In this document: in pieces, positions 1-40,546 of the stretch | Layout of the letters: the number at the start of each line of letters is the position of its first letter | Numbering within the stretch: position 1 is the first letter of the stretch | Assembly: GCA_043801885.1 (NCBI GenBank) | Contig: JAZDLP010000087.1 | Coordinates: forward strand, 1 to 40,546 | Length of the DNA: 40,546 bases | From: Planctomycetota bacterium | GTDB lineage: Bacteria > Planctomycetota > SZUA-567 > H5-PLA8 | Direction: 5' to 3' | Made by a program: the position numbers and the translations under genes | The notes under the pieces: generated by a model | Told to the model about the DNA's origin: nothing | The model's database searches: none | Seen by the model: only the letters and a program-made list of their open reading frames with translations

Positions 1-191
1 CTTACGGTCACGCATTGAATGCCATGCGATTCCCAAAACGGCAACCATTTCGCGCGGTGGGAATATGTCTCGCTCCGTTCATGTGTGGTATCTGAATGAA
101 TCGCCACGTCCACGCGCGGCAAGTCGCCAAAGGCAACCATCGCCTTGAGTGTGTTTGATTGTACGCCCTCACCGTCAGAAATTGTTATCAT
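1..191 (-). CDS. hypothetical protein, N-terminal part only (gene runs off the left edge); loosely PP-loop/PAPS-reductase-like
   Basis: ATG at 191..189 is preceded by a GAGGGAGGG Shine-Dalgarno. The frame is open to position 1. The translation MITISDGEGVQSNTLKAMVAFGDLPRVDVAIHSDTTHERSETYSH only loosely recalls the SGGxxS...DTGxE..ET pattern of phage PAPS-reductase-like proteins (from memory, not searched). Confidence 0.45.
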   Translation of the reverse strand, partial: MITISDGEGVQSNTLKAMVAFGDLPRVDVAIHSDTTHERSETYSHRAKWLPFWESHGIQCVTV

Positions 192-202
192 CCCGCCCTC
201 CC

Positions 203-403
203 TCACTCGCCCACCACGTTTTCGATCCGCAGCGCGATGCGCCGCTTAACGACTGGATTCACGAACCGCCAGTTCGCCGTCACGGCTGCACCCCGCCGAA
301 TATCACAGAGCGTCATTCCCGCCGTGAGCAGGAGTTGCACGCGGTCGGGGTAGTCAAGGTCATCCCACTGGTTCACAATCTTAATTACTGCTTCATGTTC
401 CAT
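203..403 (-). CDS. hypothetical protein (66 aa)
   Basis: ORF track. The ATG shares one base with the stop of the upstream gene (TGATG), the coupling pattern seen throughout this operon. Confidence 0.5.
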   Translation of the reverse strand: MEHEAVIKIVNQWDDLDYPDRVQLLLTAGMTLCDIRRGAAVTANWRFVNPVVKRRIALRIENVVGE

Positions 404-612
404 CAGGAAATGCTCTTCGCGGTTCCGTCAATAACGACTGGTGCATCGCCGCGCAATTCAAATTTACCCGTCGGGCAATCCTCCACATTGCATGGATGTA
501 GTCTCCAGCGTGTAATCGGAAAATCATTCAGCGGCATCAACTCACAGCGCGGATCGTCGTCAGTGCCGGCGAGTATGCGGTCTTTGCAATACCGTAAAGA
601 GTGAATGTCCAT
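403..612 (-). CDS. hypothetical Cys-containing protein (69 aa)
   Basis: Internal ATG at 612 is preceded by GGGGGAGGGAAACG. The longer 403..696 form has no SD. Confidence 0.55.
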   Translation of the reverse strand: MDIHSLRYCKDRILAGTDDDPRCELMPLNDFPITRWRLHPCNVEDCPTGKFELRGDAPVVIDGTAKSIS

Positions 613-662
613 CGTTTCCCTCCCCCTGCCGCACGACCCTCGCCGCGCGGTCACTTCGTGCA

Positions 663-983
663 TTAGGCATTGCCACCATCCGGGCAGTAGTGGCATTTGC
701 CACCAACGCTCAGATTACCGCACGATTCGCAATGGTACACGTCCGACAGGATGATCGCGGTCGAGTATTTTGGTGGCAAATATCGGATTGCCACTACCCC
801 GCCCGACTTCCTGTAATCGTGCAGGGCTTGCTGGACAATTTCGATCCATTGTGCGGGAGTAAGAGCGGCAATTTTTCTGGTAGGCGGCTTGACGTTCTGG
901 AGCGAGAGTTCCAAATCTGCCGCCATAGCGAGACTCTCGCCGCTTGCCACTACCGCGTCGCCAGCCCCAATACTTGCCACCAT
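663..983 (-). CDS. hypothetical protein with C-terminal CxxC...CxxC zinc-ribbon-like motif
   Basis: ORF track. The C-terminus reads YHCESCGNLSVGGKCHYCPDGG. The start is uncertain (983 or ATG at 926). Its translation looks more protein-like than the overlapping ORF 715..1092. Confidence 0.5.
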   Translation of the reverse strand: MVASIGAGDAVVASGESLAMAADLELSLQNVKPPTRKIAALTPAQWIEIVQQALHDYRKSGGVVAIRYLPPKYSTAIILSDVYHCESCGNLSVGGKCHYCPDGGNA

Positions 984-1086
984 TCTTGACCTCGATTCGC
1001 CAGTTTAGCGTAGACAGATTGCCACTATCTTTTGGCGCATCTGCCACCAATTCCAGACTTGCCACCAAGTCGGCGTCTGGTGGCAA
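670..1086. repeat. array of 11 copies of the 9-bp motif TTGCCAC(C/T)A (iteron-like)
   Basis: Read directly. Plus-orientation copies start at 670, 697, 788, 944, 974, 1019, 1041 (CTGCCACCA) and 1059. Reverse-orientation copies are at 688 (ATGCCACTA), 771 and 1078. Confidence 0.85.
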
Positions 1087-1124
1087 ATCCATCTCTGCCG
1101 CGCCTTCGACTGGCGCGGCTTTGG

Positions 1125-1844
1125 TTAGTTTGGGCTTGTCGGGTCCTTGCCGTTACCACTAACGCGTTCGGTCTCTGCGACTGGGATGCGCTCAACCTCG
1201 TTTTTTCGAAACGTGATTTTTGCTGCCTGACCCGCAACATCCTGCGCTGCCCGCGCCGCCAACTGACGAGCACCCCCCAAGATTGCTTGTTGATTCACAG
1301 GATCGTCAATCTCGGTTTGCATTTGGATCGCCATCGCATTGATTGAGGAGACTCTCGCTTCAAGCGCCACGTTTGCCAGCTTCAACTCTGCATCACGGAT
1401 TTTGGCATTGGGATCGGTGGAATAGATCATGTACGCACCCACTGCCGCAACAATCATAATGAGTGCGGGCGCGGCAAACGTGCGGTAGAAAGTCCACAGG
1501 GCGTCTAGCGATGAGGTATTCCCCCAAACCACAGAGTTCAGGATCAGGACAGCCAGCATGACTATGTGGCTGATCAGCGACCACATCCGCTGGTCACCGG
1601 CGGTACTACGCGCACACATGAGCGAGCCAAACGAAAAGACCTCGCCGGTAGCAGCTGCGATTCCGCCAATGATAAGCAACATCCCCGACAGACCCATCAC
1701 AAGCAACGGAATGTTGTGTGAGAGAGTCCAAAGATGGATGAACACCTCGACTAACACGATGAACGCGAAAATCTCATTTCCGCGATACCGTGCCTTCGCT
1801 TCCTTCAGAAGTTGTCCGGGTGTTTTGGTAAGTGTGTCCGACAT
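1125..1844 (-). CDS. integral membrane protein (about 5 TM segments) with C-terminal coiled-coil-like tail
   Basis: ATG at 1844 is preceded by GAAGGGGGAAAA. Hydrophobic stretches include IFAFIVLVEVFIHLW, LLVMGLSGMLLIIGGIAAA, ISHIVMLAVLILNSVVW and ALIMIVAAVGAYMIY. Confidence 0.7.
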   Translation of the reverse strand: MSDTLTKTPGQLLKEAKARYRGNEIFAFIVLVEVFIHLWTLSHNIPLLVMGLSGMLLIIGGIAAATGEVFSFGSLMCARSTAGDQRMWSLISHIVMLAVLILNSVVWGNTSSLDALWTFYRTFAAPALIMIVAAVGAYMIYSTDPNAKIRDAELKLANVALEARVSSINAMAIQMQTEIDDPVNQQAILGGARQLAARAAQDVAGQAAKITFRKNEVERIPVAETERVSGNGKDPTSPN

Positions 1845-1937
1845 TTTTCCCCCTTCTTGGCAGGAACAGGTTAGTCCCGTTCGCTGCAATCACAAACCAT
1901 TCGATATTGTTGCCTCGCCCACGTCTCACTACACAAG

Positions 1938-2168
1938 TCACCTCACAAACGCGGGCAGCATAATCAGCGCAGACAGAATCGCGAACAGTCCGACCGCAAT
2001 CGCACCAAAGAATCCGCCCCACGCGCGCTCTTTGCGTGATGGCGCTCCAATGATAAAGCCACCCCGCCTCATTTTCTCGCGCGCTTTTTCGTTAGGACAG
2101 ACGAGTCCCCACATAAACCACGCCGCCCACATCACGACAAGCGTTCCGACTAGAATCATTTCACCCAC
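1938..2168 (-). CDS. small membrane protein (76 aa, 2 TM)
   Basis: ORF track. The start abuts the stop of the upstream gene. Hydrophobic segments are ILVGTLVVMWAAWFMWGLV and FFGAIAVGLFAILSALIML. Confidence 0.6.
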   Translation of the reverse strand: MGEMILVGTLVVMWAAWFMWGLVCPNEKAREKMRRGGFIIGAPSRKERAWGGFFGAIAVGLFAILSALIMLPAFVR

Positions 2169-2327
2169 TCAGCGCGCCGGTCCGTGAATCTCGATATAGA
2201 TAATCGCGATGAGAAACAATGCAACGACCTTCCAGAATGGGAACGGAATAACCAACTCAAACGCTGGAGTCGTGATGTAAAACTCCAAATTGATTCTTCC
2301 GCCAATCCACTCTACAAGATTTTTCAT
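2169..2327 (-). CDS. small membrane protein (52 aa)
   Basis: ATG at 2327 is preceded by AGGAG and forms an ATGA overlap with the upstream stop. C-terminal hydrophobic segment: FWKVVALFLIAIIYI. Confidence 0.55.
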   Translation of the reverse strand: MKNLVEWIGGRINLEFYITTPAFELVIPFPFWKVVALFLIAIIYIEIHGPAR

Positions 2328-2539
2328 TTCGCCAACTCCTGCAATCCCCGCGCCGCGACCTTGCCGAACACGTCGAGCCACGGCACATCGGGCGCGAGAT
2401 ACAGCGCCGCCAGCACGACGATGACAACGAGCACGATCAGCATAATCGCCAAGTCGCGGTTGTGCGCGGCTTGTTTGCGGTTATGGACACTGCGCCAGGA
2501 CTGATAGTACCCGTGATCCCTATGATGCGGATGATACAT
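2324..2539 (-). CDS. small membrane protein (71 aa, His-rich N-terminus, 1 TM)
   Basis: ORF track. TM segment LAIMLIVLVVIVVLAALYLA. Start and stop overlaps on both sides. Confidence 0.6.
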   Translation of the reverse strand: MYHPHHRDHGYYQSWRSVHNRKQAAHNRDLAIMLIVLVVIVVLAALYLAPDVPWLDVFGKVAARGLQELAK

Positions 2540-2871
2540 CAGAATATTCCCCCATCCCCTGGACTTCCCACCTCAATGCGATTCTGCCCAATGCCGGTTT
2601 CGCCAAGAAAAAGAATGTCCTCATCATAGTTTTGCAACAGCGTGGGGTAAACATATTTCGCCCGGCGCAGGGCTTCGTCGATTGTATCCAGTGCCTCAAG
2701 GACGCCGCCGTAGATTTTATTATTCAACGCGACGCCGCCGTCACGCAAGATACCGGCAAGTCCTTCGTTGTCAAAATTCTCGTCCTGCTCAATCCAGATG
2801 TGCCCATCCATACCAACCAGGTATGCGCCCATTTGTCCAAGCGCGAGTAGCCGCCTTGCCAATGTGTCCAT
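2539..2871 (-). CDS. hypothetical protein (110 aa)
   Basis: ATG at 2871 overlaps the upstream stop by one base (TGATG). The longer track ORF starts in an Arg/Gly-rich stretch. Confidence 0.6.
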   Translation of the reverse strand: MDTLARRLLALGQMGAYLVGMDGHIWIEQDENFDNEGLAGILRDGGVALNNKIYGGVLEALDTIDEALRRAKYVYPTLLQNYDEDILFLGETGIGQNRIEVGSPGDGGIF

Positions 2872-3080
2872 CACGCGCCGCCTTCCGTGTCCGCGTCCTT
2901 CGGCTCCATCACGCCCACACACTTGAAAATCAAGAACGTGTCGCGCGGCTGTGCCTCGGAAAGCCGCAGCGCTTCAGCGCGCGCTTCGTCAAGCGTCGCG
3001 TGTTCTTTCGTCGCGCGGAGTACGCGCCCCGCCTTGACCACGATAAATGTTTCCTTCATTTTTCCCTCCGCCTGTTTCAT
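2871..3080 (-). CDS. hypothetical protein (69 aa)
   Basis: ORF track; overlapping start and stop codons with its neighbours. Confidence 0.55.
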   Translation of the reverse strand: MKQAEGKMKETFIVVKAGRVLRATKEHATLDEARAEALRLSEAQPRDTFLIFKCVGVMEPKDADTEGGA

Positions 3081-3319
3081 CTTGCAATCTCCGCGTATCG
3101 GTCAACAAACTTTCGTAGCGCCGCAATCGTCAGTGTCGCCGCGACTCGCCCCGTTCCCAGCGCGCCCGGTAGCCCCGTGATTCGCTCGGCTTGTCGCGCC
3201 GGCAGACACAACACGATTTCCTTCTGCTCGAACAGCGGGCAATCTGTGCAGGTCAATCGTTCGCACTCCTCGAAGCACCCGAAGTCGATGGCGGTTCCGC
3301 CCGGCGCGTGTTCAATCAT
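3077..3319 (-). CDS. hypothetical Cys-rich protein (80 aa)
   Basis: ORF track; contains CFEECERLTCTDCPLF; ATGA-type overlaps. Confidence 0.55.
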   Translation of the reverse strand: MIEHAPGGTAIDFGCFEECERLTCTDCPLFEQKEIVLCLPARQAERITGLPGALGTGRVAATLTIAALRKFVDRYAEIAR

Positions 3320-4017
3320 GCCATCACCAACGCGGGTTGCTTCTGTGCATCCGCGATGCGCCTCTGCGCGATGGCGAAGTAGTCAAGATTGATTTCCATG
3401 CCAATAAAATTGCGATTCAGTTTGACGCACGCCACGCCCGTTGTGCCGCTACCCATGAACGGGTCAAGAATGGTATCGCCTTCGTTGGTAAGTGTTGCGA
3501 TAAGAGTGATTATGTTTGGCAGGTATTTCTCTGTGGGGTGTTCGGTTTCGCCGTGTCCGCCGTTTGCCTCAAGGAATGCCTCCTCGAATTTGTGCATGCG
3601 ATGAAACGTCCACTTGCCACGCGCTCCCCATAGTCCAAACTCAAAAGAACTGACAAACATTCTGTCTCGATTCGTCGGAACGGGGTTTCTTTTCTTAATC
3701 ACAATTGGACGCTTGGCGTTAATTCCGTTCGCCTGCAGGCACTCCGCGATTAGTCCTAGATTCTGCCAAGAATTAAATATGACGATATTGGAGTCCACCT
3801 TCAATTTCGGCGCGGCACGGGCAATCCAATCGGTTTGATTAAACCCCTTGTCCCATTCCCCGAAATCAATCCCCTTGTAGGAATTGTATCGCTCCATTGT
3901 GGCAAAGTTGTTTTCGCGACTCACGTTGTACGGCGGGTCAGTAATCACCGCGTCCACGCTCGCATCGGGCATCTCGCGCATCAGTTCAAGGCAATCGCCT
4001 AGCCGCAAATCAATCAT
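3316..4017 (-). CDS. DNA methyltransferase, beta-class amino-MTase (N6-adenine or N4-cytosine)
   Basis: Motif IV ITDPPYNV lies near the N-terminus. Motif I ILDPFMGSGTTGVA plus HPTEK lie near the C-terminus. This is the same order as CcrM/HinfI-type enzymes. Confidence 0.9.
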   Translation of the reverse strand: MIDLRLGDCLELMREMPDASVDAVITDPPYNVSRENNFATMERYNSYKGIDFGEWDKGFNQTDWIARAAPKLKVDSNIVIFNSWQNLGLIAECLQANGINAKRPIVIKKRNPVPTNRDRMFVSSFEFGLWGARGKWTFHRMHKFEEAFLEANGGHGETEHPTEKYLPNIITLIATLTNEGDTILDPFMGSGTTGVACVKLNRNFIGMEINLDYFAIAQRRIADAQKQPALVMA

Positions 4018-4463
4018 CGCTGCACCGCCTCGGCGTACTCGCCGTCAAACCACGCCTTCGGCTTTCCGCGTGCATATTCCGCGACAATCTTCCCAACCAG
4101 CGCATACGGGTCAACCTGCAACGCCCATCGCTCGAACCATTCCAAGAGGCATAGCCGATCAACTGCCTCGCCTAGTCCCTTCGCGTCGCCCTTGCATTGC
4201 GTGAGAACGGCGACCGCTGCCGCGCGGGACTTCGGCATTCGCTCCCGCGTCGATCCGCATAGTTTCGCCAAGTCATCGGCGACCAAATCGATCAGTCCCT
4301 TGTCGTCTCTCCACGCGTTCGGGTCCGCGACGTTTGCGTCGTAGTCAGATTGATGCTCTGTGCATGCCGTTCGCGTCAGCGGTACGCCCGCGCGATAAAC
4401 GCTGTGGTCGATAATGTCTTGCCAGTCTACGGGTATGGATGTATCGGCTGTTACTGTGCTCAT
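4014..4463 (-). CDS. hypothetical protein (149 aa)
   Basis: ORF track; 4-nt overlaps with both neighbours. Confidence 0.6.
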   Translation of the reverse strand: MSTVTADTSIPVDWQDIIDHSVYRAGVPLTRTACTEHQSDYDANVADPNAWRDDKGLIDLVADDLAKLCGSTRERMPKSRAAAVAVLTQCKGDAKGLGEAVDRLCLLEWFERWALQVDPYALVGKIVAEYARGKPKAWFDGEYAEAVQR

Positions 4464-4942
4464 GGTTTCACCTCGAACTGCGTCTGCCGCATCGCGTCGT
4501 GGTCAAGCGCAACAGACACGCGCGCTTCACCGCCGTGCTTGCGACCATAATCAGCGGGTATCTCGCCCCACGCTTGGGTATCCCATGCTAGTACCTTGGA
4601 GTGCTTAGGGTGATTCGCCAGCCATGTCTCGGCGTGCCTAATCATTGCAGCAAGTTCTATATTATACGTATGGTGCTTCGTATTGAATCGCTTTTTAGCA
4701 ATCCACGTCCGCGCCGTGAAGGAATCAGAGTAGACCGGATCGGTGCGGTTGTGTTTCGCAAGCCACGCCAGCGCGTGTACGATCGCGAGTGCCTCGCCGA
4801 TGTTGTTTGTGCCATCTGGATATTGCTTGTTGGCAAATATCTGTTTGCCCGTTGCAATATCCACAATACACCATTCGATAATGCCGGGGTTGCCTTGCGT
4901 TCCTACATCTACCGCAATCCCGCTGGTTGGTTTGCTACTCAT
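4460..4942 (-). CDS. RNase H-like protein
   Basis: ATG at 4942 is preceded by CAGGAGG. GIAVDVGTQGNPG ... TNNIGEALAIVHAL ... YSDSFTA resembles the D-E-D catalytic pattern of RNase HI. Confidence 0.6.
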   Translation of the reverse strand: MSSKPTSGIAVDVGTQGNPGIIEWCIVDIATGKQIFANKQYPDGTNNIGEALAIVHALAWLAKHNRTDPVYSDSFTARTWIAKKRFNTKHHTYNIELAAMIRHAETWLANHPKHSKVLAWDTQAWGEIPADYGRKHGGEARVSVALDHDAMRQTQFEVKP

Positions 4943-5074
4943 TCTGCGTGCCTCCTGTTTTGGTTGGCTCGTTAAATGCAAAGCAAGGAAACGGCTAGAA
5001 ACGCTTTCCCCCATTGCTGGGGGATTGCAGATTGCACGAGCTGAGGTATCCGTGTAGTTTCCTGCTCAATCGGC

Positions 5075-5266
5075 TTATCCTTGCGGTCGCGCCCTGGTCA
5101 CTCTGTAACGCTTCCCGATTGCCCTGCGGATCCAAAATCCGCGCGTGACGGGATGTGTGGACTGCTTATTTGTCCACGCAGTGGGTTCGGCGTCATGATC
5201 ATACTGCATTGAGAGTCCGATTTGAACGGATGGATGAAGGCGCGAACGCTTTGATCCCTGGGTCAT
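5075..5266 (-). CDS. questionable small ORF (63 aa, basic)
   Basis: ORF track only. No convincing SD. It lies in an otherwise coding-poor 367-bp gap. Confidence 0.25.
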   Translation of the reverse strand: MTQGSKRSRLHPSVQIGLSMQYDHDAEPTAWTNKQSTHPVTRGFWIRRAIGKRYRVTRARPQG

Positions 5267-5381
5267 CCCAATGCCGCCGTTTGGTTCACTACGTTTTGCG
5301 CTCCCCTACGGGTTGGCTTCGCGCTAAGTTCTTTGACAGATGCTAATCGCCGTAGCAGCGCCGCATCTTTTATGTGGCGTG

Positions 5382-5624
5382 CTACTCCCAAACAATCTTT
5401 TTGATTTTTACGCGTGCTTCGTCAATTCGTTGTGGCAGAACGGTTTTCGGTGGAATTGGCTTGGCTTCGCGTCGCTCTGCTTGCTCTGCGGCATAATCGG
5501 ATTTGTCTTGCGCCGTGCCGAATCGTTCAATAAAACACTTTTGGCAACACCTAGATACCTGTGCCTTGAGGTGTAACCCCGGTGTTTCTTCAAGCAAATG
5601 CCCACAGAATTTACAGCCAGACAT
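5382..5624 (-). CDS. small zinc-ribbon-like protein (80 aa)
   Basis: Contains CKFCGH ... CCQKC. Overlaps the upstream gene by 14 nt. Confidence 0.55.
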   Translation of the reverse strand: MSGCKFCGHLLEETPGLHLKAQVSRCCQKCFIERFGTAQDKSDYAAEQAERREAKPIPPKTVLPQRIDEARVKIKKIVWE

Positions 5625-6000
5625 TATCGTCCTCTCCGAAGAAAACCTCTACCTGATCTACTCTCAAAGCGAACCGCTTTCGCAGTTCCGCCTTAAGGCA
5701 TTGGGGACAGAGACAATTTTCATTGACGCGCGAGGTATCCGCACCGTGTGCATTCAAAGTAACGTCCGTTCCATTCTGAGAGCGCTTGGCACTTGGGGCA
5801 ATTGCTAGTCGCCACAAGGCAACGCATTGCCGATAGTAATTTTTTGAGCATGTCACGCACCATCCTTTCGGAATATCGATATTGCCAGACTTAGGAGAAA
5901 TCGAGTAACCATCATTGCGCGCCGCAAACCACAGGGCGTTTGTTCGGAGAAACCGATACGCCGCCCAGCCTGCATCCGGCGCAATGATTGAATCGATCAC
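5611..6000 (-). CDS. hypothetical protein (129 aa, GTG start)
   Basis: ORF track. The start codon reads GTG on the minus strand. Confidence 0.5.
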   Translation of the reverse strand: MIDSIIAPDAGWAAYRFLRTNALWFAARNDGYSISPKSGNIDIPKGWCVTCSKNYYRQCVALWRLAIAPSAKRSQNGTDVTLNAHGADTSRVNENCLCPQCLKAELRKRFALRVDQVEVFFGEDDNVWL

Positions 6001-6153
6001 GCCGCCTCGTCGTCATCGGACATTGCGGCTTGGACTGAATCCCAGTACAGGATTTGTGATAGCCACACTCCGCCCGCCACGCTTTTCATCACACGCGCCA
6101 GGTACGGATGATACGCAATCGGTCGGTCGCCAAGAATAATTCTAAGTACTCGC

Positions 6154-8049
6154 CTATTCATTCTTGCTCCTGTTTTTGACGCGCTCGATCAACTCGCGCG
6201 CCATAGAATATTTCGATTTGTCGTCATCCAGCACGCCATCGCTCGCCGCGTCTACCGTGCTGCGCTTGGTCGCAATCAGGTCATAGATGTCCTCGTCGAT
6301 CGTGCCCTCACCAACGAGATACCAGGCGTTGACCGATTCGGTTTGCCCGATGCGATGCACGCGATCCTCTGCCTGATCCATCGTGCCGGGATTCCATCCA
6401 AACTCTACAAACGCGACGTTGCTCGCGGCGGTCAGTGTCAGTCCAAGTCCGCCGCTCTGGATATTTAGCACAATCAATTTGCACGCATCGTCATTCTGGA
6501 ATCGGTCAACCGCATTTTGAAGTACCTGTTTGTCCACGCCGCCGATGATGCAATCCACACGCGTTCCGAGTTCTGCGCTGAATGTCTGTGCGAGCGATTC
6601 GGCGGTATCGCGGTGCCACGCAAATAAAACGAGTTTGCCGTCGCTGTCCAGAAAGTTCTTGACCCATTCCGTCACCGCGTTCATTTTTCCGGCGGCGGCG
6701 AGTTGTTTCAATTCCTCGATGCGAACCAAGTGCGCACCGGGTTCGTCCGGGATTTCCGAATCTGCCAATTTGTCATATTCGCGGCGATTTGAGATTGTGA
6801 GCGGAACGATGCTGCGCTGTTTGGCGGGAAGTTCGGTCAGTACGTCTTTTTTCAATCGGCGGATGTAGCACGTTGCGCGCATCTTTTGATTGAGTTCGTC
6901 CAGGTGATAGCCGCCCTTTTCAAATCCGCGCCCCTGCACATAGCCGCAATAGCGATTTGCGATATTCCAGAATCCGCCCAGGTCGTCCAGGCGTCCGAGT
7001 ATTCCTAGTTGCGACAATAGTTCAGACGGATGATTGAGTAGCGGCGTGCCGCTCATTAGCAAACGATATTCAATCCCCTTCGCAATTGATTTCAGATGTT
7101 CGGTGCGTTGTGCCTTGTAATTTTTTACATAGTGGCATTCGTCTGATACCAGCATTCGGAATTTTATTGCAGACAATGATTCCAAAAACTTGCCCAAAAT
7201 ATCATAATTGACGATGATAATATCCGCGCTCTGCCAATCCTCGACGGTTTTGCCATTTAGCACAACGGCGCGTCGGTTCGGTATCCATTTGCGCGCCTCA
7301 CGTTGCCAGTTTAGTTTCAGCGACGCCGGGCAAACCACGAGTGCGGGGAACGCTTGCGCCGCTTGCATCGTGGCGAGAGCCTCGATTGTTTTCCCGAGAC
7401 CCATTTCATCCGCGATAAAAACGCGCTTGTTGGTGAGCGCATACGCCGTGCCACCGCGCTGGAATGGTCGGAGTTCCCCGCCCAGTCCCTCGATTTTGAT
7501 TTCCGCATCTACCGATGCGCTCGCGGCAACGTTCGCAGATTGTTTCGCGCTAAGGTTTTCAAACGCCGCCCGCGCTTTTTCGTCAATCTCAAAGTCAGGG
7601 AATCTGTCCACGCAGTTTTGAAACTGCGCGATTGGTGCAGTCCAAAACTTATTGTTGCCGTCGAAGCGGCGTCCCTCGATTCCGCGCACGCGGTCAACGA
7701 GTTTCGGATCGTATCCGAATTTGATAATGAGCGAGTTCGCGCCAAGTAAAATTTTGCCGTGTGTTTGGGGTTTCGGTTGTGGCGCAACCCGGGGAGTTAA
7801 ATTGTTGGTGAGAAGCGATTCGGGCGCGGGTAATTCAATGCCGCGCTTTTCGAGTTGCGCGGAATATTTCGTCAGCATTTTCAGCGCGGCAACACTCTGG
7901 TTCTCTGTCAGCGTTTGTCCACCGCGAATGCGCGCGGTGAGCGATTTGCCAAAAGCAGAATCGAATGCGTTGAATCCAGATGCGTCCAACGCCTGCGCGC
8001 CGTCGCATACGGAATCGAGATAGAGTAGTGCGTCATTGATTTGATTCAT
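6154..8049 (-). CDS. SNF2-family helicase/translocase with HARP-like N-terminal region
   Basis: Motifs seen: DEMGLGKT (I), VSDECHYVKN (II), MSGTPLLNHPSEL (III), QAEDRVHRIGQ (VI). The N-terminal segment IKFGYDPKLVDRVRGIEGRRFDGNNKFWTAP resembles a HARP annealing-helicase domain (from memory). Confidence 0.9.
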   Translation of the reverse strand: MNQINDALLYLDSVCDGAQALDASGFNAFDSAFGKSLTARIRGGQTLTENQSVAALKMLTKYSAQLEKRGIELPAPESLLTNNLTPRVAPQPKPQTHGKILLGANSLIIKFGYDPKLVDRVRGIEGRRFDGNNKFWTAPIAQFQNCVDRFPDFEIDEKARAAFENLSAKQSANVAASASVDAEIKIEGLGGELRPFQRGGTAYALTNKRVFIADEMGLGKTIEALATMQAAQAFPALVVCPASLKLNWQREARKWIPNRRAVVLNGKTVEDWQSADIIIVNYDILGKFLESLSAIKFRMLVSDECHYVKNYKAQRTEHLKSIAKGIEYRLLMSGTPLLNHPSELLSQLGILGRLDDLGGFWNIANRYCGYVQGRGFEKGGYHLDELNQKMRATCYIRRLKKDVLTELPAKQRSIVPLTISNRREYDKLADSEIPDEPGAHLVRIEELKQLAAAGKMNAVTEWVKNFLDSDGKLVLFAWHRDTAESLAQTFSAELGTRVDCIIGGVDKQVLQNAVDRFQNDDACKLIVLNIQSGGLGLTLTAASNVAFVEFGWNPGTMDQAEDRVHRIGQTESVNAWYLVGEGTIDEDIYDLIATKRSTVDAASDGVLDDDKSKYSMARELIERVKNRSKNE

Positions 8050-10585: not shown

Positions 10586-10879
10586 CTAGATTGCCATTTC
10601 GGTCTGACCGTGTTCGTGCTGGTAGTCCAACGCGAATTGATTGCATTCTTTCATCGCGCGCTCGCTGGGCAAGAAGGGACTCTCGTAGGCTTCCCAGATT
10701 TCGAGCATCGACTTGATCTCCGTGTCGGTCAGGTCTGCGCTTGATCCGATCTCGCGCTTGACGAATCCCGAGTACGCCGCGTGGCGGAGCGCGTCGCGCG
10801 TCTTGCCTGGTTGCGTCGCGAAACACTTTCCGACAATTGCCGCGAGCCGTTGTGCGGGTGTGGTTGCGTGCTTGTCCAT
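10586..10879 (-). CDS. hypothetical protein (97 aa)
   Basis: ATG at 10879 overlaps the ERF stop (TAATG). The longer track ORF is a Gly/Arg-rich out-of-frame extension. Confidence 0.6.
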   Translation of the reverse strand: MDKHATTPAQRLAAIVGKCFATQPGKTRDALRHAAYSGFVKREIGSSADLTDTEIKSMLEIWEAYESPFLPSERAMKECNQFALDYQHEHGQTEMAI

Positions 10880-11517
10880 TACTTCTTCTCCGCCTTCTTG
10901 TCCGCCCACGCCGACGCCGCCTTGTTCAGTGTAGCGAATACCGTATCGTCGTCCATTCCGAATGTGATTGTTCCGTGCTTGGTCAGGTAGTCCAATGACT
11001 TGATCGCGTTTGCCGCCTCGCCGGAGAGGTACGGGATTTCCTTTGCGGCGCGGGTAACCAAGTCTTTTCGTCCAAACCAAACAACCGGAGCGGATTTCTT
11101 TTTGTCGTCACCCGCGCCTGCGCCATTGTTTCCGTCGGCGTCCTCGTCGGCATATGCCCCGATGATCGCGGCGTATGAATAACGGCGCAGATAGGTGATA
11201 ATTGACCCGGCGGATTGTGCCAGCGACCGTCCCTTCTCGTCGCCAATTGGCATCGCGATGGTGGACTCAAGCCACTGCCCCGACTTGTGCATCAGGATCG
11301 TCGTCAGGGAAATGCTTCCGTTGTCACTCCCCGGCAGTTGTGAGATTGAGAGTCCGTTGTCGCGGAGTGGTTCGCGCGCCGCCTCGATGATTGCGCCCAG
11401 GTCAGCGTACTTGTTTTTGAGAAACGGATTGACGGCGTTCATTTTCACGCCAGCCAATTTGCTTTGTGCCGCGACCAGCGCGGTTGCGATCTGGTCGATG
11501 TTTTCGCTTTTGTTCAT
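10879..11517 (-). CDS. erf: ERF-family single-strand annealing protein (recombinase)
   Basis: NPFLKNKYADLGAIIEAAREPLRDNGLSISQ ... TILMHKSGQW ... QSAGSIITYLRRYSYAAIIG matches the conserved ERF signature (from memory). SD is GAGGGGAG. Confidence 0.8.
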   Translation of the reverse strand: MNKSENIDQIATALVAAQSKLAGVKMNAVNPFLKNKYADLGAIIEAAREPLRDNGLSISQLPGSDNGSISLTTILMHKSGQWLESTIAMPIGDEKGRSLAQSAGSIITYLRRYSYAAIIGAYADEDADGNNGAGAGDDKKKSAPVVWFGRKDLVTRAAKEIPYLSGEAANAIKSLDYLTKHGTITFGMDDDTVFATLNKAASAWADKKAEKK

Positions 11518-12025: not shown

Positions 12026-12574
12026 TTAATCCTTTGAATGCATTAACCCATAAAGCGTAGCCACGCGCGCGGTGATCTCACTGTTTTCCTCGCACGTGCC
12101 AACGTGGCAACGAGACAGGCGATACTTGCCATCCGTCGTGGTTGGGATGCAGGCAATGTCGGAGGCAATATGATGGATAACCTTAACGCGATGGGATGGT
12201 TCATAGTTCTTCAAAACCCACGCGAGTGTTCCCACATTGATACCACTGGCGCATGTTTGATTAGGGTCTGTGTTCGCATCTGCGACTAACAACTCTGCAT
12301 TGTCAGCATAAATAAGACCGCCATTGAAGATGCCCTCATCCCTCTGGTTGGTCAATTTGTAACTAACCATACTTCCTAATTGGTCTTTGAGAATGAGAAG
12401 GTCACAAACCAATTCTGGAATAATCCCGATGGCGTAACTCAGATTGGCGGAACTCAGATCGGCGGAACTCAGATCGGCGGAACTGGCAATTGCTTTCACA
12501 ATAGCATCTCGTTGTGAGTCTGCCTCGGTTTCAAAAATCACAACTCCGCTTCCGTTTTTGATTTGGATGTTCAT
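12026..12574 (-). CDS. pentapeptide-repeat protein with C-terminal domain of unknown function
   Basis: ATG at 12574 is preceded by GGCGGAGG. The N-terminus NIQIKNGSGVVIFETEADS...ASSADLSSADLSSANLSYA is a typical pentapeptide-repeat lead-in. The C-terminal half recalls DUF5758-like phage proteins (memory only). Confidence 0.75.
   Translation of the reverse strand: MNIQIKNGSGVVIFETEADSQRDAIVKAIASSADLSSADLSSANLSYAIGIIPELVCDLLILKDQLGSMVSYKLTNQRDEGIFNGGLIYADNAELLVADANTDPNQTCASGINVGTLAWVLKNYEPSHRVKVIHHIASDIACIPTTTDGKYRLSRCHVGTCEENSEITARVATLYGLMHSKD
12440..12484. repeat. three tandem 15-bp repeats (CAGAT(T/C)GGCGGAACT)
   Basis: Read directly. The repeats are in-frame, and each unit encodes one pentapeptide (SSA(D/N)L) of the minus-strand gene. 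Confidence 0.9.
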
Positions 12575-12888
12575 GTTGCCTCCGCCCATTCCGTGCGCCC
12601 GCGTGCCGCGCGTTCCGCTCGTGCCGCCAACTCGCGCGCCTCAGTGATCGGGTCGCGCACAACATCCGTGCCGAAATCTTCCACCCATACCACGTCATCA
12701 CCGACCTGCAATATCTCGCCGCGATACAACCGCGACATTCCACTCGTGCCCAGTTCGTCCTTGATCGTGGACTTCATCCACCGCTCAAGATTAGGAGCCA
12801 CCACGCGGGGCAGGGTGTTCTCATCGCCGTTGGCGTTCAGCGTGACGTAGACGATCTTCTTGATGTGGACGATCTGTGGTTGATTCAT
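12571..12888 (-). CDS. first gene of the leftward early operon, hypothetical (105 aa)
   Basis: ATG at 12888 is preceded by GAGGACGCG. The track start at 12936 is TTG and would run through the inverted repeats. Confidence 0.6.
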   Translation of the reverse strand: MNQPQIVHIKKIVYVTLNANGDENTLPRVVAPNLERWMKSTIKDELGTSGMSRLYRGEILQVGDDVVWVEDFGTDVVRDPITEARELAARAERAARGRTEWAEAT

Positions 12889-14956: not shown

Positions 14957-15295
14957 TTAGGTCAAGCAATTTTCAATCTCCCCGCTAATCAATTCGTCCA
15001 TTCCGAAATAGACCCGTTTCCCTAACGCCCACGCCAATTGCACCTCGGCGTTTGCTCCGAATGATTCGCCGGGTAGTCGCAGCACTACATCACACGCGGC
15101 GAGCCATTCATTATCCAGCGCGTACCAAAACTTGATTTTGTGCGGCAACACCAAGTGCCAGAAATGGGTAAGGTGGGGCACGAACGGAGTAAATCCGCGG
15201 ATCGCCAACTCATCTGCTGTCTCAATTGCTTTCCGCACATTCAGCACGGCATCGCCGTGAGTGTAGGGTGCGGCAATGTAAACCTTGGTTTTCAT
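14957..15295 (-). CDS. DUF1937-like / nucleoside 2-deoxyribosyltransferase-fold protein
   Basis: The N-terminal VYIAAPYTHGD plus CDVVLRLPGESFGANAEVQLA matches the YLASPYSH...W..S.G...E pattern that I recall for DUF1937/DUF4406. Confidence 0.55.
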   Translation of the reverse strand: MKTKVYIAAPYTHGDAVLNVRKAIETADELAIRGFTPFVPHLTHFWHLVLPHKIKFWYALDNEWLAACDVVLRLPGESFGANAEVQLAWALGKRVYFGMDELISGEIENCLT

Positions 15296-15363: not shown

Positions 15364-15588
15364 TTAAACTTCAATCCAGTAAACGATATGCCGGCATTTC
15401 TGATTCGCCACATTCAGCCCCGGTACTGACGCCGAACGCAATTGTCCCAGGTCGGCGTAGTGGTGAATAATTTGCATCGCCCGATCCTCTGAAATTCCAA
15501 GCCGCCGCGCGATCTGAACCGTTCTCTCTGCACCTTCTTTGTCGCCGGCTATCGGCGGGATTTCGACTTGCTTTTTCCTCTTTGCCAT
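15364..15588 (-). CDS. small putative DNA-binding (HTH-like) protein
   Basis: ATG at 15588 is preceded by GGGGAG. Basic N-terminus, then TVQIARRLGISEDRAMQII, which looks like a helix-turn-helix. Confidence 0.45.
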   Translation of the reverse strand: MAKRKKQVEIPPIAGDKEGAERTVQIARRLGISEDRAMQIIHHYADLGQLRSASVPGLNVANQKCRHIVYWIEV

Positions 15589-16421
15589 TGTTCTCCCCAC
15601 AGTGTTAAGCCATCGGATAGTAGCTCAGGTATGAATCCATCTCTGGATTTGTGAAGAATCAGCGCACCGTTCCTCATCTTGGGTCGCGTAGTGTCGCGGC
15701 GCATATAGTACGCCAATCGTTCTGTGTCTACGCAATACCCAATCTCTAAGCCCCAATGCCGCCCGTCGGCAGTCTGTTGCATTCCAACCAGGTGATTATG
15801 CGCCATCGCGACGTTGCAGTTGTTTGCCGTTGCGATTGCCTTCGCCGCGTTTGCGGGGACCGTGTTGGTTGCTTTGGGATGAACAATGCGCCAGCGATCC
15901 TCGCCCTCGCCGACCCAGCAATAGAAGTAATCGCTCGCCTTGACCTTGCGCTCAAATTCCGCCGCGAGTTTCGGCGGAATGACTAGCCGTGTCATTTTGT
16001 CCGCGCCGATGAATCTGTCCAACGTAATCTGTGGTCGGCGGTCGTGATTGCCTGCGATGTAAAAGATTCGCTCAAAGGGTCGGATGAACGATTCGATGTG
16101 TTGCTCGATTTGCTCGATCTCTTCATCGGTGTCTTTTTCACTCTCGAAAAAGTGCGCCAACGATCCCCAGTGAAACCAATCGCCCGCGAAGATTGCGGCA
16201 CGAATCCCGTACCCTAGCGCGCGTTCGATGCAACGATTCACAAACGCCGCGTTGTGTAGCGGAATCTCGACATCGGGCAGAATCAGACAGGATTCGTCAA
16301 GACAAAGTGCGTCTAGGAACTTCGGTGCCGGGCTTTCAGGAACGCGCAGTGCATCGGAAATCCTCACGGCTTGCCCCCTATTCGATTTTGAATGTACGGT
16401 ATTATCTCGTCTATTTCGCAT
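15549..16421 (-). CDS. calcineurin-like metallophosphoesterase
   Basis: Motifs PDVEIPLH (DxH-like), FAGDWFHW (GD), IAGNHDRR (GNHD) and AMAHNH. The start is uncertain (ATG at 16421 or a downstream GTG). Confidence 0.75.
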   Translation of the reverse strand: MRNRRDNTVHSKSNRGQAVRISDALRVPESPAPKFLDALCLDESCLILPDVEIPLHNAAFVNRCIERALGYGIRAAIFAGDWFHWGSLAHFFESEKDTDEEIEQIEQHIESFIRPFERIFYIAGNHDRRPQITLDRFIGADKMTRLVIPPKLAAEFERKVKASDYFYCWVGEGEDRWRIVHPKATNTVPANAAKAIATANNCNVAMAHNHLVGMQQTADGRHWGLEIGYCVDTERLAYYMRRDTTRPKMRNGALILHKSRDGFIPELLSDGLTLWGEQWQRGKSKSKSRR

Positions 16422-16566
16422 CCTTTGCTCTGCAGAGCGCAGCGCGGGCATCCGCCTCAATCAGCGCGATCGTCTGCCCCGCGTCAGCGTAGTACGACCA
16501 TAGCCACGCGCGGAGATCCGCAAGTGCATCCATGATGAAATGCCAAAAAGGCGAGTGGTGCATCAT
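16411..16566 (-). CDS. possible small protein (51 aa)
   Basis: Not in the track. The ATG forms an ATGA overlap with the XhlA-like stop. The frame is open to TAG at 16413..16411. Confidence 0.3.
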   Translation of the reverse strand: MMHHSPFWHFIMDALADLRAWLWSYYADAGQTIALIEADARAALCRAKDAK

Positions 16567-18388: not shown

Positions 18389-19231
18389 TCAGATCGCCTG
18401 TCCCAAAACGTAGCCGTCGAACGTATTCGCCGCCGTTGCGACAAACCCGAACGTATCCGCTTTGTTGATCGTCGTCGTCAGGGTCGGCGCGCTTCCGCCC
18501 GCCCAACTGATTGTCGTAAACCACGTAACTGTTCGCGTCCCCGTTCCATCCTGTGTGAGTTTGAGGACAAACTTCATTCCCGCGACCACGTTGGAGAGCG
18601 CGAGCGTGCGGTTGCCGCCCAGCGTGACCTTCTGCCAAAGCCCCGTTGCCAGATTGAATGTTACCGTTGCCTCATCAGTCGCGGCGACATAGTCCTGGAA
18701 AGGCGTCGCGTATTTCACGCCTGCCGTTTGCGATGAGTCAGCCACGAGCGCAAGCCCATTCGTTCCCACCGCGACGCGCACCGGCGTTGACGCTCCACTT
18801 GCCGCGTAGACATCGCCTTTGGTCGTTAGTGTTGCCTTTTGCGCGTACTGCGTGTGATCATCTGCTGCCAATCCTGACAACGAGCCGTGATAGGTTATAC
18901 CGCTGTCTGCGTTCCATCCTGATTCAGAATCGTAAACGAGGGATGCGCCTGCCGCCAGCGTGGCTTTGCGAATGATTCGCAGGGTTGTGTTATCATTGTA
19001 CTGGACATAGACTGTCGCGTTGACCGTATCAGCATTGTAGATTTCAACATGCCGCACCAGTCCTGCGGCTGCCGCGCACAGGTCAACCGCCGTCGCGTTG
19101 TTGCTCACGCCATTGGTTGCAGTAACGGCATCGGCGGTCGTGATGGTCGTCGCGATAAACGGCAGTTGATTTGTCGTGACCGCGCCGCCGAGATAAAATT
19201 GAAGTTTCTGATTCGTGGAAACGTAAATCAT
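18389..19231 (-). CDS. tail fibre-like protein
   Basis: The motif LSGLAADDHTQYAQK is common in phage fibre proteins (memory). The sequence is Thr/Ala/Gly-rich and looks beta-rich. Its position also fits. Confidence 0.55.
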   Translation of the reverse strand: MIYVSTNQKLQFYLGGAVTTNQLPFIATTITTADAVTATNGVSNNATAVDLCAAAAGLVRHVEIYNADTVNATVYVQYNDNTTLRIIRKATLAAGASLVYDSESGWNADSGITYHGSLSGLAADDHTQYAQKATLTTKGDVYAASGASTPVRVAVGTNGLALVADSSQTAGVKYATPFQDYVAATDEATVTFNLATGLWQKVTLGGNRTLALSNVVAGMKFVLKLTQDGTGTRTVTWFTTISWAGGSAPTLTTTINKADTFGFVATAANTFDGYVLGQAI

Positions 19232-32005: not shown

Positions 32006-33109
32006 TCAGGCGATAGACGGCTCGCTCCACGCGCCCGCCGTATTTTTGTAAACTGCCGCGCCGACGCGATCTGCAACACCCACTCCGAATTCGAGGAAGA
32101 GCATCGCGCCTTCGAGAGGGAATTGTTTGATGGGGAATTGACGCCCGCTCATTAGCACCGCGCCGAGTCCGTAGTCCGCCGATTGGCGGATCTTCAGCGG
32201 ATTGCGCGCGTCGCCTGCGCCGTAGGACTTGTAGACGCCCCAAAACGCGGTTGGAATACGCGCGTTGGCGATCACCTGCACCTCGCCGTAGACACTCGTT
32301 TCAATTGCGCCGATGAATTGGCTATCCACCGCTGCAATATCCGTTTGTGTTCCGTAGCGAATCAGAGTTGCACCGCGCTTGACCCAACCAGTCACATTGG
32401 TTGTGTTGCTCCACGAACCGGTATCCGCCTGCGCGATCAGTAGTGTGAACGGCGCGTCGTATCCATGTTCCCACAGATTCGCAACTGCCGCTTCGAGCCC
32501 CGCTTGCGAGATTCCGTTGTACGGGGCGATGTGATCGTGCGAAGAGGCAAACGCTGACGCTCGCTCAGGGCGATTGACCGGGATATATGCGCTATCCGCA
32601 GTGCCAGCATCCGCCAACGGCATGGACTTGCCGCTCGCGCCGACCGCGTCATACGTGCCCTTGAACAGACGCGACAAAACCGCGTTCTGGAATTTGTCTT
32701 TGAGATCCGCGATGGCACTATCGACATTCGCATCGAGTTGTGCTGACCGCGCGCTCCGCAGATAATCCCACGTCCAATCCAGCATCCGGTCGTAGCCGAT
32801 CAGTGGCAACATCGTGCCGGTCGTTACCGCGCGCTTGCCATCCGGCAGTCCGTACTCAGTGTGCGGCTGAAAGCCGTTCGACACACCGATTTGGTATTCC
32901 AGCGACGCCTCGTCAGTCGTCGAGCAGAGCGATGCGACCAGAGGGTCAGCCATCAGCCCTTGATTGGCGATAGACAATGCCGAGGCAAGATCGTTCAGAT
33001 ATTCGTCGTACGTTCGCCCGTCCTTGAGCGTCAACTGCGAAAGGTACGCAGTATCAAACCCAGCGGGCAGGGCGATTTGCTTCAGGTCGTTTGGACCAAG
33101 AGTAGCCAT
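32006..33109 (-). CDS. major capsid protein
   Basis: 367 aa, downstream of the scaffold and decoration-like genes. Assigned by position and size; the family was not identified. Confidence 0.7.
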   Translation of the reverse strand: MATLGPNDLKQIALPAGFDTAYLSQLTLKDGRTYDEYLNDLASALSIANQGLMADPLVASLCSTTDEASLEYQIGVSNGFQPHTEYGLPDGKRAVTTGTMLPLIGYDRMLDWTWDYLRSARSAQLDANVDSAIADLKDKFQNAVLSRLFKGTYDAVGASGKSMPLADAGTADSAYIPVNRPERASAFASSHDHIAPYNGISQAGLEAAVANLWEHGYDAPFTLLIAQADTGSWSNTTNVTGWVKRGATLIRYGTQTDIAAVDSQFIGAIETSVYGEVQVIANARIPTAFWGVYKSYGAGDARNPLKIRQSADYGLGAVLMSGRQFPIKQFPLEGAMLFLEFGVGVADRVGAAVYKNTAGAWSEPSIA

Positions 33110-35182: not shown

Positions 35183-35318
35183 CGGTTATCGGCACGGCAT
35201 TGAGCAGCGCGGCAAATTCCGCGTCGAGCATCGCCATTTCCTCGTCAGTTAGTTGCACGGCGTCGGCAGTCGTCAGTCGCGCAATCTCTTCGTCGGATAA
35301 AGCAATAGGTGGTATCAT
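35151..35318 (-). CDS. possible small acidic protein (55 aa)
   Basis: Not in the track. The ATG forms ATGA with the portal stop. Translation begins MIPPIALSDEEIARLTTADAVQLTDEEMAMLDAEFAALLNAVPITDAEPKRQAQS. It overlaps the next gene by 32 nt. Confidence 0.35.
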   Translation of the reverse strand: MIPPIALSDEEIARLTTADAVQLTDEEMAMLDAEFAALLNAVPITDAEPKRQAQS

Positions 35319-38077: not shown

Positions 38078-38387
38078 CGTAAACGACGTGCATCGTTATC
38101 ACCCCGGTCGCCTCTACGCCCATCGGCTCGCTGCGCGCCATCAGTTCGCGCAGAATCGCCGCGTTGCCGAGCGCCGCTTGCCGATACGCCGCCGCGACCA
38201 CGGTTTTTTTCCAGCATGTTCCGTCAGGCAAGCCCGCAATCGCCGTGATGTCCCTTGGCGTTGCTGTCTCGCCGTAGGAACGAATCAACTCAGCCCAAGA
38301 CGTGCCGAGCGGCGTCATAGTCGATTTGCGCTTGATTCCCTTCTGGCGTCCCTTTTCGAGATTTGCCTTCGATTTTTCGCTAACCAT
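38067..38387 (-). CDS. terminase small subunit (putative)
   Basis: 106 aa with a basic N-terminus. It overlaps the terL start by 11 nt. Confidence 0.5.
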   Translation of the reverse strand: MVSEKSKANLEKGRQKGIKRKSTMTPLGTSWAELIRSYGETATPRDITAIAGLPDGTCWKKTVVAAAYRQAALGNAAILRELMARSEPMGVEATGVITMHVVYDDK

Positions 38388-40204: not shown

Positions 40205-40396
40205 TTATGCCGCCTTGTTCGTTCCGCAGCGCGGCGTCCGCGCCCGAAATCCGTACCAGTGCGAGTTTTCCTCTTGCACGAGTTTCCGCAATTCGGATTG
40301 CAATAAGTCGAATAATTCTCCCTTATCGGGATTCGTTTCTGTGATGACCGCGGTGAGATTCAGCGTGGCGAACCAAATCAATTCCTCTTGGGTCAT
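40205..40396 (-). CDS. hypothetical protein (63 aa)
   Basis: ORF track; ATGA overlap with the upstream open frame. Confidence 0.45.
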   Translation of the reverse strand: MTQEELIWFATLNLTAVITETNPDKGELFDLLQSELRKLVQEENSHWYGFRARTPRCGTNKAA

Positions 40397-40546
40397 GATT
40401 TTCCACGTGACAGATACAATTTGACCAACTCTAAATCAATCAAGTCGATTTCATTGGCGAGATACTTTTTCATATCGGGTTCTCTCTCTCGCCAAAAGTC
40501 GCGGCAGAATGATTCTTTCATCCCGCGCAAAACGTCGCGGCGGCGC
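40393..40546 (-). CDS. 3' end of a gene entering from the right edge (or short ORF starting at ATG 40521 or 40473)
   Basis: The minus-strand frame is open from the window edge to TGA at 40395..40393. Translation: ...RRRDVLRGMKESFCRDFWREREPDMKKYLANEIDLIDLELVKLYLSRGKS. Confidence 0.4.
   Translation of the reverse strand, partial: RRRDVLRGMKESFCRDFWREREPDMKKYLANEIDLIDLELVKLYLSRGKS

Follow-up and report, generated by a model that had tools for sequence, protein, structure and literature searches.

Clustered short sites in and around a +1-overlapping gene pair beside a membrane-protein gene, in a tailed-phage genome and in other mobile elements

Near one end of contig JAZDLP010000087.1, whose full 40,546 bases are here called the window, two small genes, A and B, overlap in different frames just downstream of a gene for a membrane protein, and a 9-mer, TTGCCACYA, recurs through and around them. 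The three genes and their array of sites, together referred to below as the cassette, are the subject of this account; the window that holds them is a tailed-phage genome with nearly all of its genes on the minus strand. The features of the locus, from high to low coordinates, are these.

1125..1847, minus strand: polytopic membrane protein of 240 residues with a helical C-terminal tail, the upstream partner of A and B
1153..1161, plus strand: weak twelfth copy of the 9-mer, TTACCACTA, with one mismatch, in the final codons of the membrane-protein gene
1097..1119: G+C-rich hairpin with 8 G-C pairs, between the membrane-protein stop and the first site
715..1092, minus strand: gene A, longest open reading frame (ORF), conserved core 880..1002, candidate sequence-specific DNA-binding domain
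1019..1086: upstream cluster of four sites, where gene A has its unconserved leader or N-terminal extension; read on the minus strand, 1078-1086 is TTGCCACCA, and 1059-1067, 1041-1049 and 1019-1027 are TRGTGGCAR
974-982 and 944-952: two sites within the conserved core of gene A, in the codons N-G-G-K and G-S-G-K
663..983, minus strand: gene B, in the +1 frame relative to A, with a C-terminal CxxC..CxxC zinc ribbon
788-796, 771-779, 697-705, 688-696 and 670-678: downstream cluster of five sites, in the 3' third of gene B
751..779, minus strand: sigma-70-like promoter match, TTGCCA-17-GATCAT, the -35 hexamer of which is site 771-779

The exact 9-mer is present nine times, on the plus strand at 670, 697, 788, 944, 974, 1019 and 1059 and on the minus strand at 771 and 1078, against 0.48 expected from shuffles of the window, the largest shuffle value being 2. 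All nine are within 670..1086 with none elsewhere in the 40.5 kb, and by our own arithmetic the chance of nine uniformly placed sites all falling within a single span of 417 bp is about 1e-15. Two further copies, at 688 (ATGCCACTA) and 1041 (CTGCCACCA), have one mismatch. An earlier reading of the letters alone (the sequence-only reading) had listed eleven copies here and had seen no comparable clustering elsewhere in the window, and both statements are borne out. With up to one mismatch allowed, 12 of the 31 matches in the window lie within 670..1161, the expectation for the whole window being 13.5; the hexamer TGCCAC occurs 30 times in the window, which does not amount to enrichment against the 22.5 expected, and 11 of the 30 are in the array. 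Eight of the eleven copies face one way and three the other. To the two head-to-head pairs already described (688/697, abutting, and 771/788, with an 8-bp spacer) can be added a third, 1059/1078, with a 10-bp spacer. No longer repeat unit embraces the 9-mers, only families of 11-13 nt having been found, and since the start-to-start spacings are irregular (18, 9, 74, 17, 156, 30, 45, 22, 18 and 19 bp) the array is without helical register.

All eleven copies are inside ORFs, six in frame A and five in frame B, and they are read in three codon phases, as L-V-A, G/S-G-K/N, L-P-P and C-H-Y, where the sequence-only reading had recognized at least two frames. The array is therefore a DNA-level signal written through coding sequence, and the unrelated peptides encoded by its copies (LPP, LVA, (G/S)G(K/N) and CHY) agree with the earlier contention that it is not a protein repeat. 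One of the downstream sites is spelled by the second zinc-knuckle codons, K-C-H-Y, of gene B, and the two clusters are separated by a site-free core of 150 bp. What does have to be revised is the gene model of the region 663..1092: the stretch 984..1124, formerly taken to be a non-coding gap, is traversed by gene A.

The array has a GC content of 0.47-0.68 in every 40-bp window over 660..1119, and the same 40-bp windows reveal no A+T-rich unwinding stretch adjoining it. The sole DnaA-box-like match in the window (up to one mismatch) is at 4857, none being by the array; cumulative GC skew of the window has no turning point, and a search of positions 1..3000 with Rfam yielded no RNA family. The hairpin at 1097..1119 is terminator-like on the plus, antisense, strand only. 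The promoter match at 751..779 is the only one on the coding strand in 1..2500, though it is a match to consensus only and such matches are not commoner than in shuffles; it is a candidate for a regulated promoter that would drive read-out from the cassette.

By codon scoring, frame A is the preferred one between about 1145 and 990, and frame B between about 980 and 700. The core of gene A comprises 41 residues, WRIEV..G.YW.WRRG.G..R..RYGG.F..L..ERQAAY, with 23 invariant columns in the alignment of homologues, the window version being WRIEV..YWGWRRGSGK..RYGGRF..L..ERQAAY, and its tail past about 870, which overlaps gene B, is unconserved. The family surfaced only with a hypothetical A-B fusion as the query; over the A part of this query, which joins frames A and B, homologues have 47-73% identity, and an exhaustive profile search provided 168 A-family representatives at E-values up to 0.001. 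Among 150 listed representatives all but one are of 53-273 residues and carry the domain towards the C-terminal end of the ORF as called, and in none of those is it fused to a recombinase. The exception has 819 residues and matches in 11 short stretches, probably of a repeat-encoded region.

With the family alignment as input, AlphaFold2 places strands at residues 32-36, 41-46 and 53-59 and a helix at 65-79 (predicted local distance difference test score, pLDDT, about 80-85 in the core), a predicted beta3-alpha arrangement with the same topology as integrase arm-binding and AP2 domains. Pfam Arm-DNA-bind_3 matches gene A weakly (13.8 bits against a cut-off of 27, E-value 0.067), and arm-binding domains, Sac7d and AP2 are among the top Foldseek matches to the model, none of them significant, with 3rmp_C and 3jtz at ranks 4 and 13 (E-values 2.5-3.9, probability 0.12-0.14). 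Both A and B are tiny and are without a Rep, winged-helix or ATPase signature; Pfam, PHROG, NCBIfam and PADLOC have no family for A, B or the membrane protein, and a sequence search of the PDB gave no match.

Gene B has a helix of ALEILQ type, short strands and the C-terminal zinc ribbon. In all 50 of the 50 loci with enough downstream sequence a B homologue occupies the +1 frame relative to A, and a profile search for it returned 38 protein clusters. Used by itself as a query, the ORF of B drew no relatives from IMG/VR or from a word-indexed protein search. Its structure model is of low confidence (pLDDT 60) and has no significant Foldseek match; a weak match to Sigma70_r4_2 (E-value 0.03-0.04) is supported by neither the model nor the relatives and was set aside. 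How is B started? The likely start is an ATG at 926, formed by TAT-GG of the R-Y-G-G of A, with an ATG at 983, preceded by GAGG, as the alternative. In most loci the ATG of B is likewise a tyrosine codon TAT plus G in frame A (within R-Y-G-G or Q-Y-E), and for that reason independent initiation is the simpler reading. Fusion of A and B through programmed +1 frameshifting near CAG-AAA-AAT was also considered, since loss of a single base from the A5 run at about 870 would join the two frames. At locus L143 (L numbers denote individual loci) there is a B-frame stop downstream of the position of the RYGG-derived ATG; B there must therefore start further 3' or be reached via a frameshift near the Q-N of A.

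Relatives were collected from the contexts of protein matches and from profile-guided scans of IMG/VR, species genomes and metagenomes, giving 53 loci with the A core, of which 28 are non-redundant. The membrane protein used alone as a query has no relatives in IMG/VR, yet the window version matches the family profile with an E-value of 2.6e-14 and a homologue is directly upstream of A in 40 of the 42 loci with at least 900 nt of upstream sequence. To judge from metagenome-assembled genomes and source names, the carriers of the relatives are Anaerolineae and Thermoflexales, i.e. Chloroflexota. A locus-specific 8-mer near A, in at least 3 and up to 18 copies, is present in 18-19 of the 28 non-redundant loci, while 9-10 of the 28 keep A and B without a detectable array. 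The locus 8-mers all fit T-R-N-Y-GGCA or a close variant of it.

Window: TRGTGGCA
L129: TAGTGGCA and TACTGGCA
L130, L134 and L137: TACTGGCA
L135 and L168: TGCTGGCA
L127 and L128: TRCTGGCAT, in contiguous 8-bp runs
L131: TGCTGTCA
L143 and L153: TATCGGCA
L159: GTGCCACCATGGCAG, three copies

When T-R-N-Y-GGCA is pooled over the 28 non-redundant loci by position relative to the A core, its density directly upstream of A is about 25 times background, and there is a second peak at the 3' end of B.

-200..-100: 21 per kb
-100..0: 19 per kb
Inside A: 11 per kb
+200..+400 (3' end of B, second peak): 8-10 per kb
More than 1.5 kb away (background): 0.81 per kb

The expectation that relatives would conserve the array while its flanks drift is thus upheld for the motif and for the class of position it occupies, and fails for exact number and spacing. 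L135 and L137 have some site positions in common amid drifting flanks, and the site in the G-S-G-K codons (GGTAGTGGCAAGCG) is identical in the window and its nearest relative, L129. Many relatives spell the motif with their Y-W-Q codons, TAC TGG CA(G). The codons of the zinc knuckle also spell the site variant proper to their own element, TGCCACTA for CHYC in the window and TGCCGATA for CRYC in L153, a correspondence that is suggestive only.

A scan of viral contigs for three copies of the motif gave 81 matches, mostly in-frame peptide repeats, and several intergenic arrays of the same 9-mer (L117 6276..6674; L122 2760..2975; L049 1982..2197; L068 8317..8417; L105 108..209; L106 498..587) were rejected as homologues, there being no proteins in common near the array. 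Those of L117, L122 and L049 have 11-12-bp tandem units (GCACGCCACCA / GCCTTGCCACCA), that of L068 has four palindromes GTGGCATTTTTGCCAC, and all six resemble iteron-type regions that arose independently.

In phages the early region ends with the cassette. The order in L135 is helicase, primase-like ORF (by eye, no Pfam match), membrane protein, array, A/B, holin-like gene, M23-type lysin (by eye), small and large terminase, and portal, and the context in L137 is similar; downstream of B in L137 there are a 200-bp A+T-rich stretch with two sites directly after the gene and an extended -10 promoter-like element that is bracketed by two inverted sites. (The L135 helicase, DEAD/ResIII type, 853 residues, 5178..7739, has after its helicase C domain an insertion of about 400 residues that is intein-like by eye.) In L168 A/B are followed by TTGACA-17-TAAAAT, a small-terminase-like ORF (by eye, no Pfam match) and large-terminase-like and portal-like ORFs (by eye). 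Other carriers are of a different nature. In L131, L138 and L141-L144, six loci in all, it lies at the edge of integrated elements, where B is followed by a large serine recombinase; a tyrosine integrase and a D5 primase-helicase are carried by these elements too. The contigs of L127, L128 and L153 carry an actin-like ParM homologue, and in L127 a long tandem array of units of about 18-21 nt, translated as DETRLM / MRHVSR repeats, lies at about 12100..12700 between the gene for a 231-residue protein and the actin-like (ALP_N) gene; it may be the centromere or origin of that element. In L176 the cassette adjoins an FtsK/SpoIIIE gene. Smallest is L159 (1..5079), a circular element of 4,958 bp with a 121-bp terminal overlap, which encodes only a Prim-Pol/PriCT/D5 replicase, a resolvase, the membrane protein, A and B, and has in addition a second repeat-rich non-coding region of 550 bp (about 1250..1810) with GGGGGGAT/ATCCCCCC inverted repeats; such an element would be a natural minimal system on which to test the cassette. 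All told the cassette pairs with four unrelated replication modules, SNF2, DEAD, D5 and Prim-Pol; it is conserved and it is independent of the type of replication module.

The remainder of the window holds the following genes of recognizable or positional identity.

36824..38077: large terminase
35315..36802: portal
32006..33109: major head protein
18389..19231: tail-fibre-like protein
10879..11517: Erf
6154..8049: SNF2-type helicase
4460..5014: RNase H-like protein
38067..38387: candidate small-terminase ORF (by position only, no family match)
3316..4017 and 39020..40111, both minus strand: two DNA methyltransferases of N6/N4 type

Following A/B, and across the ends of the contig, come small genes, the methyltransferase at 39020..40111, the candidate small terminase and the large terminase, so ordered that about 3 kb and other genes intervene between the array and the candidate small-terminase gene. 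There is no terminal repeat at the contig ends. The ORF from 191 (1..191, minus) stays in frame over the joined ends with 40393..40546 (minus), and L134 has a homologous gene of 268 residues at the same place. Since L134 shares the gene order of the window, including this homologue of the ORF cut by the left end, the window is probably a circularly permuted genome, nearly complete but for a short gap. A by-eye label of 'PAPS-reductase-like' for the end-spanning ORF and its L134 counterpart was dropped as it has no Pfam support. Against GenBank phages, distant-mode blastn with 1..6000 found only methyltransferase fragments in common, and relatives gathered via the SNF2 helicase proved too distant and were without the motif. 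Scans of the window ORFs against family libraries recognized no replication initiator, in agreement with the sequence-only reading, no integrase and no ParA, ParM or TubZ-type motor; nor was an endolysin identified in the window.

Several other genes of the window deserve mention. Directly upstream of the cassette membrane protein three small predicted membrane proteins (76, 70 and 71 residues; 1938..2539, minus) may be lysis or exclusion genes. The methyltransferase at 39020..40111 has an N-terminal extension of 160 residues with no domain match, and between it and the candidate small terminase is an ORF of 199 residues (38458..39057, minus) without a family match, in the lowest-GC kilobase of the window (0.49), which may be an inserted gene of nuclease type. 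Genes resembling nucleoside 2-deoxyribosyltransferase (14957..15295, minus) and metallophosphoesterase (15549..16460, minus) are situated between the tail and recombination genes.

What reads the sites? The sequence-only reading had linked the array to a small DNA-binding gene, and that link holds; the zinc-ribbon ORF is not in itself the likely binder, the overlapping conserved gene A being the likelier candidate. Because the sites crowd before and behind the gene for A, and because the motif varies from element to element while the core of A stays, comparison of the loci makes A, possibly with B, the probable binder of the array. More tentatively, and with somewhat less than even confidence, the array can be viewed as the cognate sites of A, with or without B, in an operator or centromere-like complex. 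Protein A, with B perhaps as a partner, would occupy the two clusters of 8-9-bp sites, one ahead of the core coding sequence of A and the other at the 3' end of B, and the bound proteins would build a higher-order nucleoprotein complex bracketing the A/B genes. Its most likely effect would be control of transcription, namely autoregulation of A/B and gating of read-out from the cassette, with the gated boundary in the window phage and its relatives being that between early or replication genes and lysis or packaging genes. The tail of the membrane protein may hold the same complex as a centromere-like handle. Binding by A, transcriptional regulation and any contact with the membrane protein are inferred.

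A regulatory role is favoured by the autogenous layout and by position at the early/late boundary, which parallels that of Ltr/RinA regulators (PMC3753634). It is favoured too by the bracketed promoter-like element of L137 and by the coincidence, in the window, of a -35 hexamer with a site. Relatives that have A/B and no array are easier to square with a trans-acting regulator than with an origin or centromere acting only in cis. A number of points weigh on the other side. The fold of A has no statistical support, its best Foldseek E-values being 1.7 (PDB) and 0.24 (viral library), and the zinc-knuckle codon match to the site variant is partial in L131 and fails in loci of the L127 type. The 11-18 sites, many of them in coding sequence, exceed ordinary operator needs; such numbers are typical of centromeres and iteron origins. 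Simple regulation leaves the strict linkage to the membrane gene unexplained, since the main peak of sites is downstream of that gene and not at its promoter. Near-consensus late promoters, TTGACA-17-TAAAAT in L168 and TTGACA-17-TATGAT in L134, are 250-330 bp past the last site and so fit poorly with an obligate activator, and in the integrated elements the next gene is a serine recombinase and not a late gene.

That the array might be the iterons of a replication origin, with A and/or B as an origin binder recruiting a helicase, is the main rival reading and is unlikely, though several points speak for it. Layouts of this sort are known from lambda, whose ori is within gene O, and from P4 ori/crr with its 8-bp type I repeats. 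The copies are numerous, face both ways and extend through the putative binder gene and its surroundings; the cassette is just downstream of replication genes in L135 (the DEAD/ResIII helicase) and directly after the Prim-Pol/D5 replicase gene in L159; L137 offers its A+T-rich stretch and two sites; phages, circular mini-replicon and integrative elements with the cassette all need an origin; and no initiator was recognized anywhere in the window to account for one. Judged by what the array and its relatives look like, however, the origin is the weakest of the three options (origin, centromere or operator cluster) that the sequence-only reading entertained. In the window the array has neither an adjoining A+T-rich stretch nor a DnaA box, GC being as given above, GC skew does not turn, the spacings of 9-156 bp lack helical register and the orientations are mixed. 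At least four replication machineries, with SNF2, DEAD, D5 and Prim-Pol partners, speak against co-inheritance with any one helicase, the 9-10 array-less loci of the 28 retain A/B all the same, and L159 has a replicase of self-sufficient type together with its other repeat-rich 550-bp region. The proteins themselves are tiny and have none of the signatures named above.

Slightly more doubtful again is a centromere-like handle that works without a nucleoside triphosphatase, in which A, with or without B, would coat the array and be tethered to the cytoplasmic tail of the membrane protein, so as to hold, segregate or spread an episome in filamentous Chloroflexota while autoregulating in the manner of ParR or omega. 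The near-constant presence of the membrane protein (40 of 42 loci) would be well accounted for, 7-18 copies and the contiguous 8-bp runs of L127 and L153 resemble centromere arrays, the 5-kb circular element still keeps the cassette, the window ORFs scanned include no integrase, so that an episomal lifestyle is possible, and the relatives are carried by Anaerolineae and Thermoflexales. Set against this, the same scan met no motor of ParA, ParM or TubZ type, L127 and L153 have a separate actin-like ParM homologue with repeats of its own, many carriers are integrated elements or lytic-looking phages, and array-less members exist. Bolder, and improbable, is the proposition that membrane protein, A/B and array constitute a motor-less DNA-anchoring system of a new kind. 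Were it true, A/B would coat the sites of the element and dock its DNA to the membrane protein, thereby positioning or retaining mobile-element DNA or passing it between cells of filamentous Chloroflexota, and the proteins reading the sites would have those sites embedded in their own codons.

Very improbable is a packaging or recombination site, either a pac- or cos-type region for the small terminase or arm-type attP sites for an integrase. Two clusters flanking a 150-bp site-free core recall P1 pac or the P and P' arms of lambda attP, the cassette is upstream of terminase genes, a large serine recombinase comes after B in six loci and A has the predicted topology of an arm domain. Yet the candidate small terminase is about 3 kb away with genes in between, the cassette is also in a plasmid-like element without terminase (L159), no integrase is among the window ORFs scanned, A is unfused to a recombinase in the listed representatives of 53-273 residues and serine integrases are not known to use arm sites. 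That the array has no function at the DNA level, being a by-product of repeated peptides or of chance, can practically be dismissed: most of the 81 three-copy matches in other viral contigs are indeed in-frame peptide repeats, but frame analysis (three codon phases, both orientations, unrelated peptides, 9 copies against 0.48 expected) and family comparison (enrichment at the same position with changing variants) contradict it.

Returning to A as the putative reader of its own sites, what emerges is an unannotated three-gene cassette with its own cis sites, present in phages and integrated elements as well as in a 5-kb circular replicon, all from a phylum that has been little studied. Testable predictions follow from it: T-R-N-Y-GGCA as the consensus site, a candidate binder about 45 residues long, a conserved +1 gene pair and a fixed membrane partner. 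Some of its features are rare, namely sites set within the coding sequence of their probable readers, a motif variant that differs between elements and an overlap kept in all 50 testable loci, and they give it relevance to phage gene regulation, plasmid maintenance and overlapping genes.

Among known systems, the omega protein with the 7-bp heptads of pSM19035 and ParR with the 11-bp repeats of parC are small sheet-type binders of centromeres and operators. In common with their arrays, that of the cassette has many units in the 7-11-bp range, direct and inverted and partly contiguous (the 8-bp runs of L127 and L153), at least four of them by the gene of a very small putative DNA-binding protein, and in such systems the complex can be operator and handle at once. 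Unlike them, the conserved partner here is a membrane protein, a scan of the window ORFs having met no ParA or ParM; A is predicted to fold as beta3-alpha where theirs is ribbon-helix-helix; there is no sequence relationship; and further sites fall inside coding sequence and flank the gene pair on either side.

The late activators of the Ltr superfamily (RinA, LtrC, ArpU) have 7-nt direct repeats just distal to their own gene (PMC3753634). The position of the regulator is matched in the window, L134, L135, L137 and L168. The differences are that A and B have no PHROG or Pfam homology to RinA, LtrA-C or ArpU, that there are 11 sites and not 3, most of them upstream of or within the genes, and that the downstream promoters of L168 and L134 look constitutive and the cassette is found outside phages as well.

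In P4 ori/crr the 8-bp type I repeats (TGTTCACC) are in both orientations and are bound by the alpha primase-helicase. Octamer-sized sites, mixed orientation, irregular spacing and two separated clusters are all shared with it, and some relatives (L141, L142, L159) have primase-helicases of D5/alpha type. Whereas the binder in P4 is the replicase, however, the sites considered here travel with A/B and with any replication module, and L141 and L142, though they carry D5, are without an array. The arm-binding domains of integrases (lambda Int, P4-like/HPI; PDB 3rmp, 3jtz) resemble A in their three-stranded sheet plus helix, as predicted for A, and arm-type sites resemble the array in being 9-bp sites of monomer type, in both orientations and in two arms; unlike them, A is below the Pfam threshold, non-significant with Foldseek and not fused in the listed representatives of 53-273 residues. 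Iteron origins (lambda ori/O, Rep-iteron plasmids) have helically phased direct repeats of about 17-22 bp where the cassette has irregularly spaced 9-mers, and a recognizable initiator co-inherited with its helicase or loader where A and B belong to no known family and the replication modules vary.

The cassette thus fails at least one tested defining feature of each known family compared, and its protein families, conserved +1 overlap, membrane partner and coding-embedded sites are undescribed in the libraries searched. The logic of many short sites with a tiny cognate binder, on the other hand, is already familiar from omega/ParR, Ltr, P4 and integrase arm sites.

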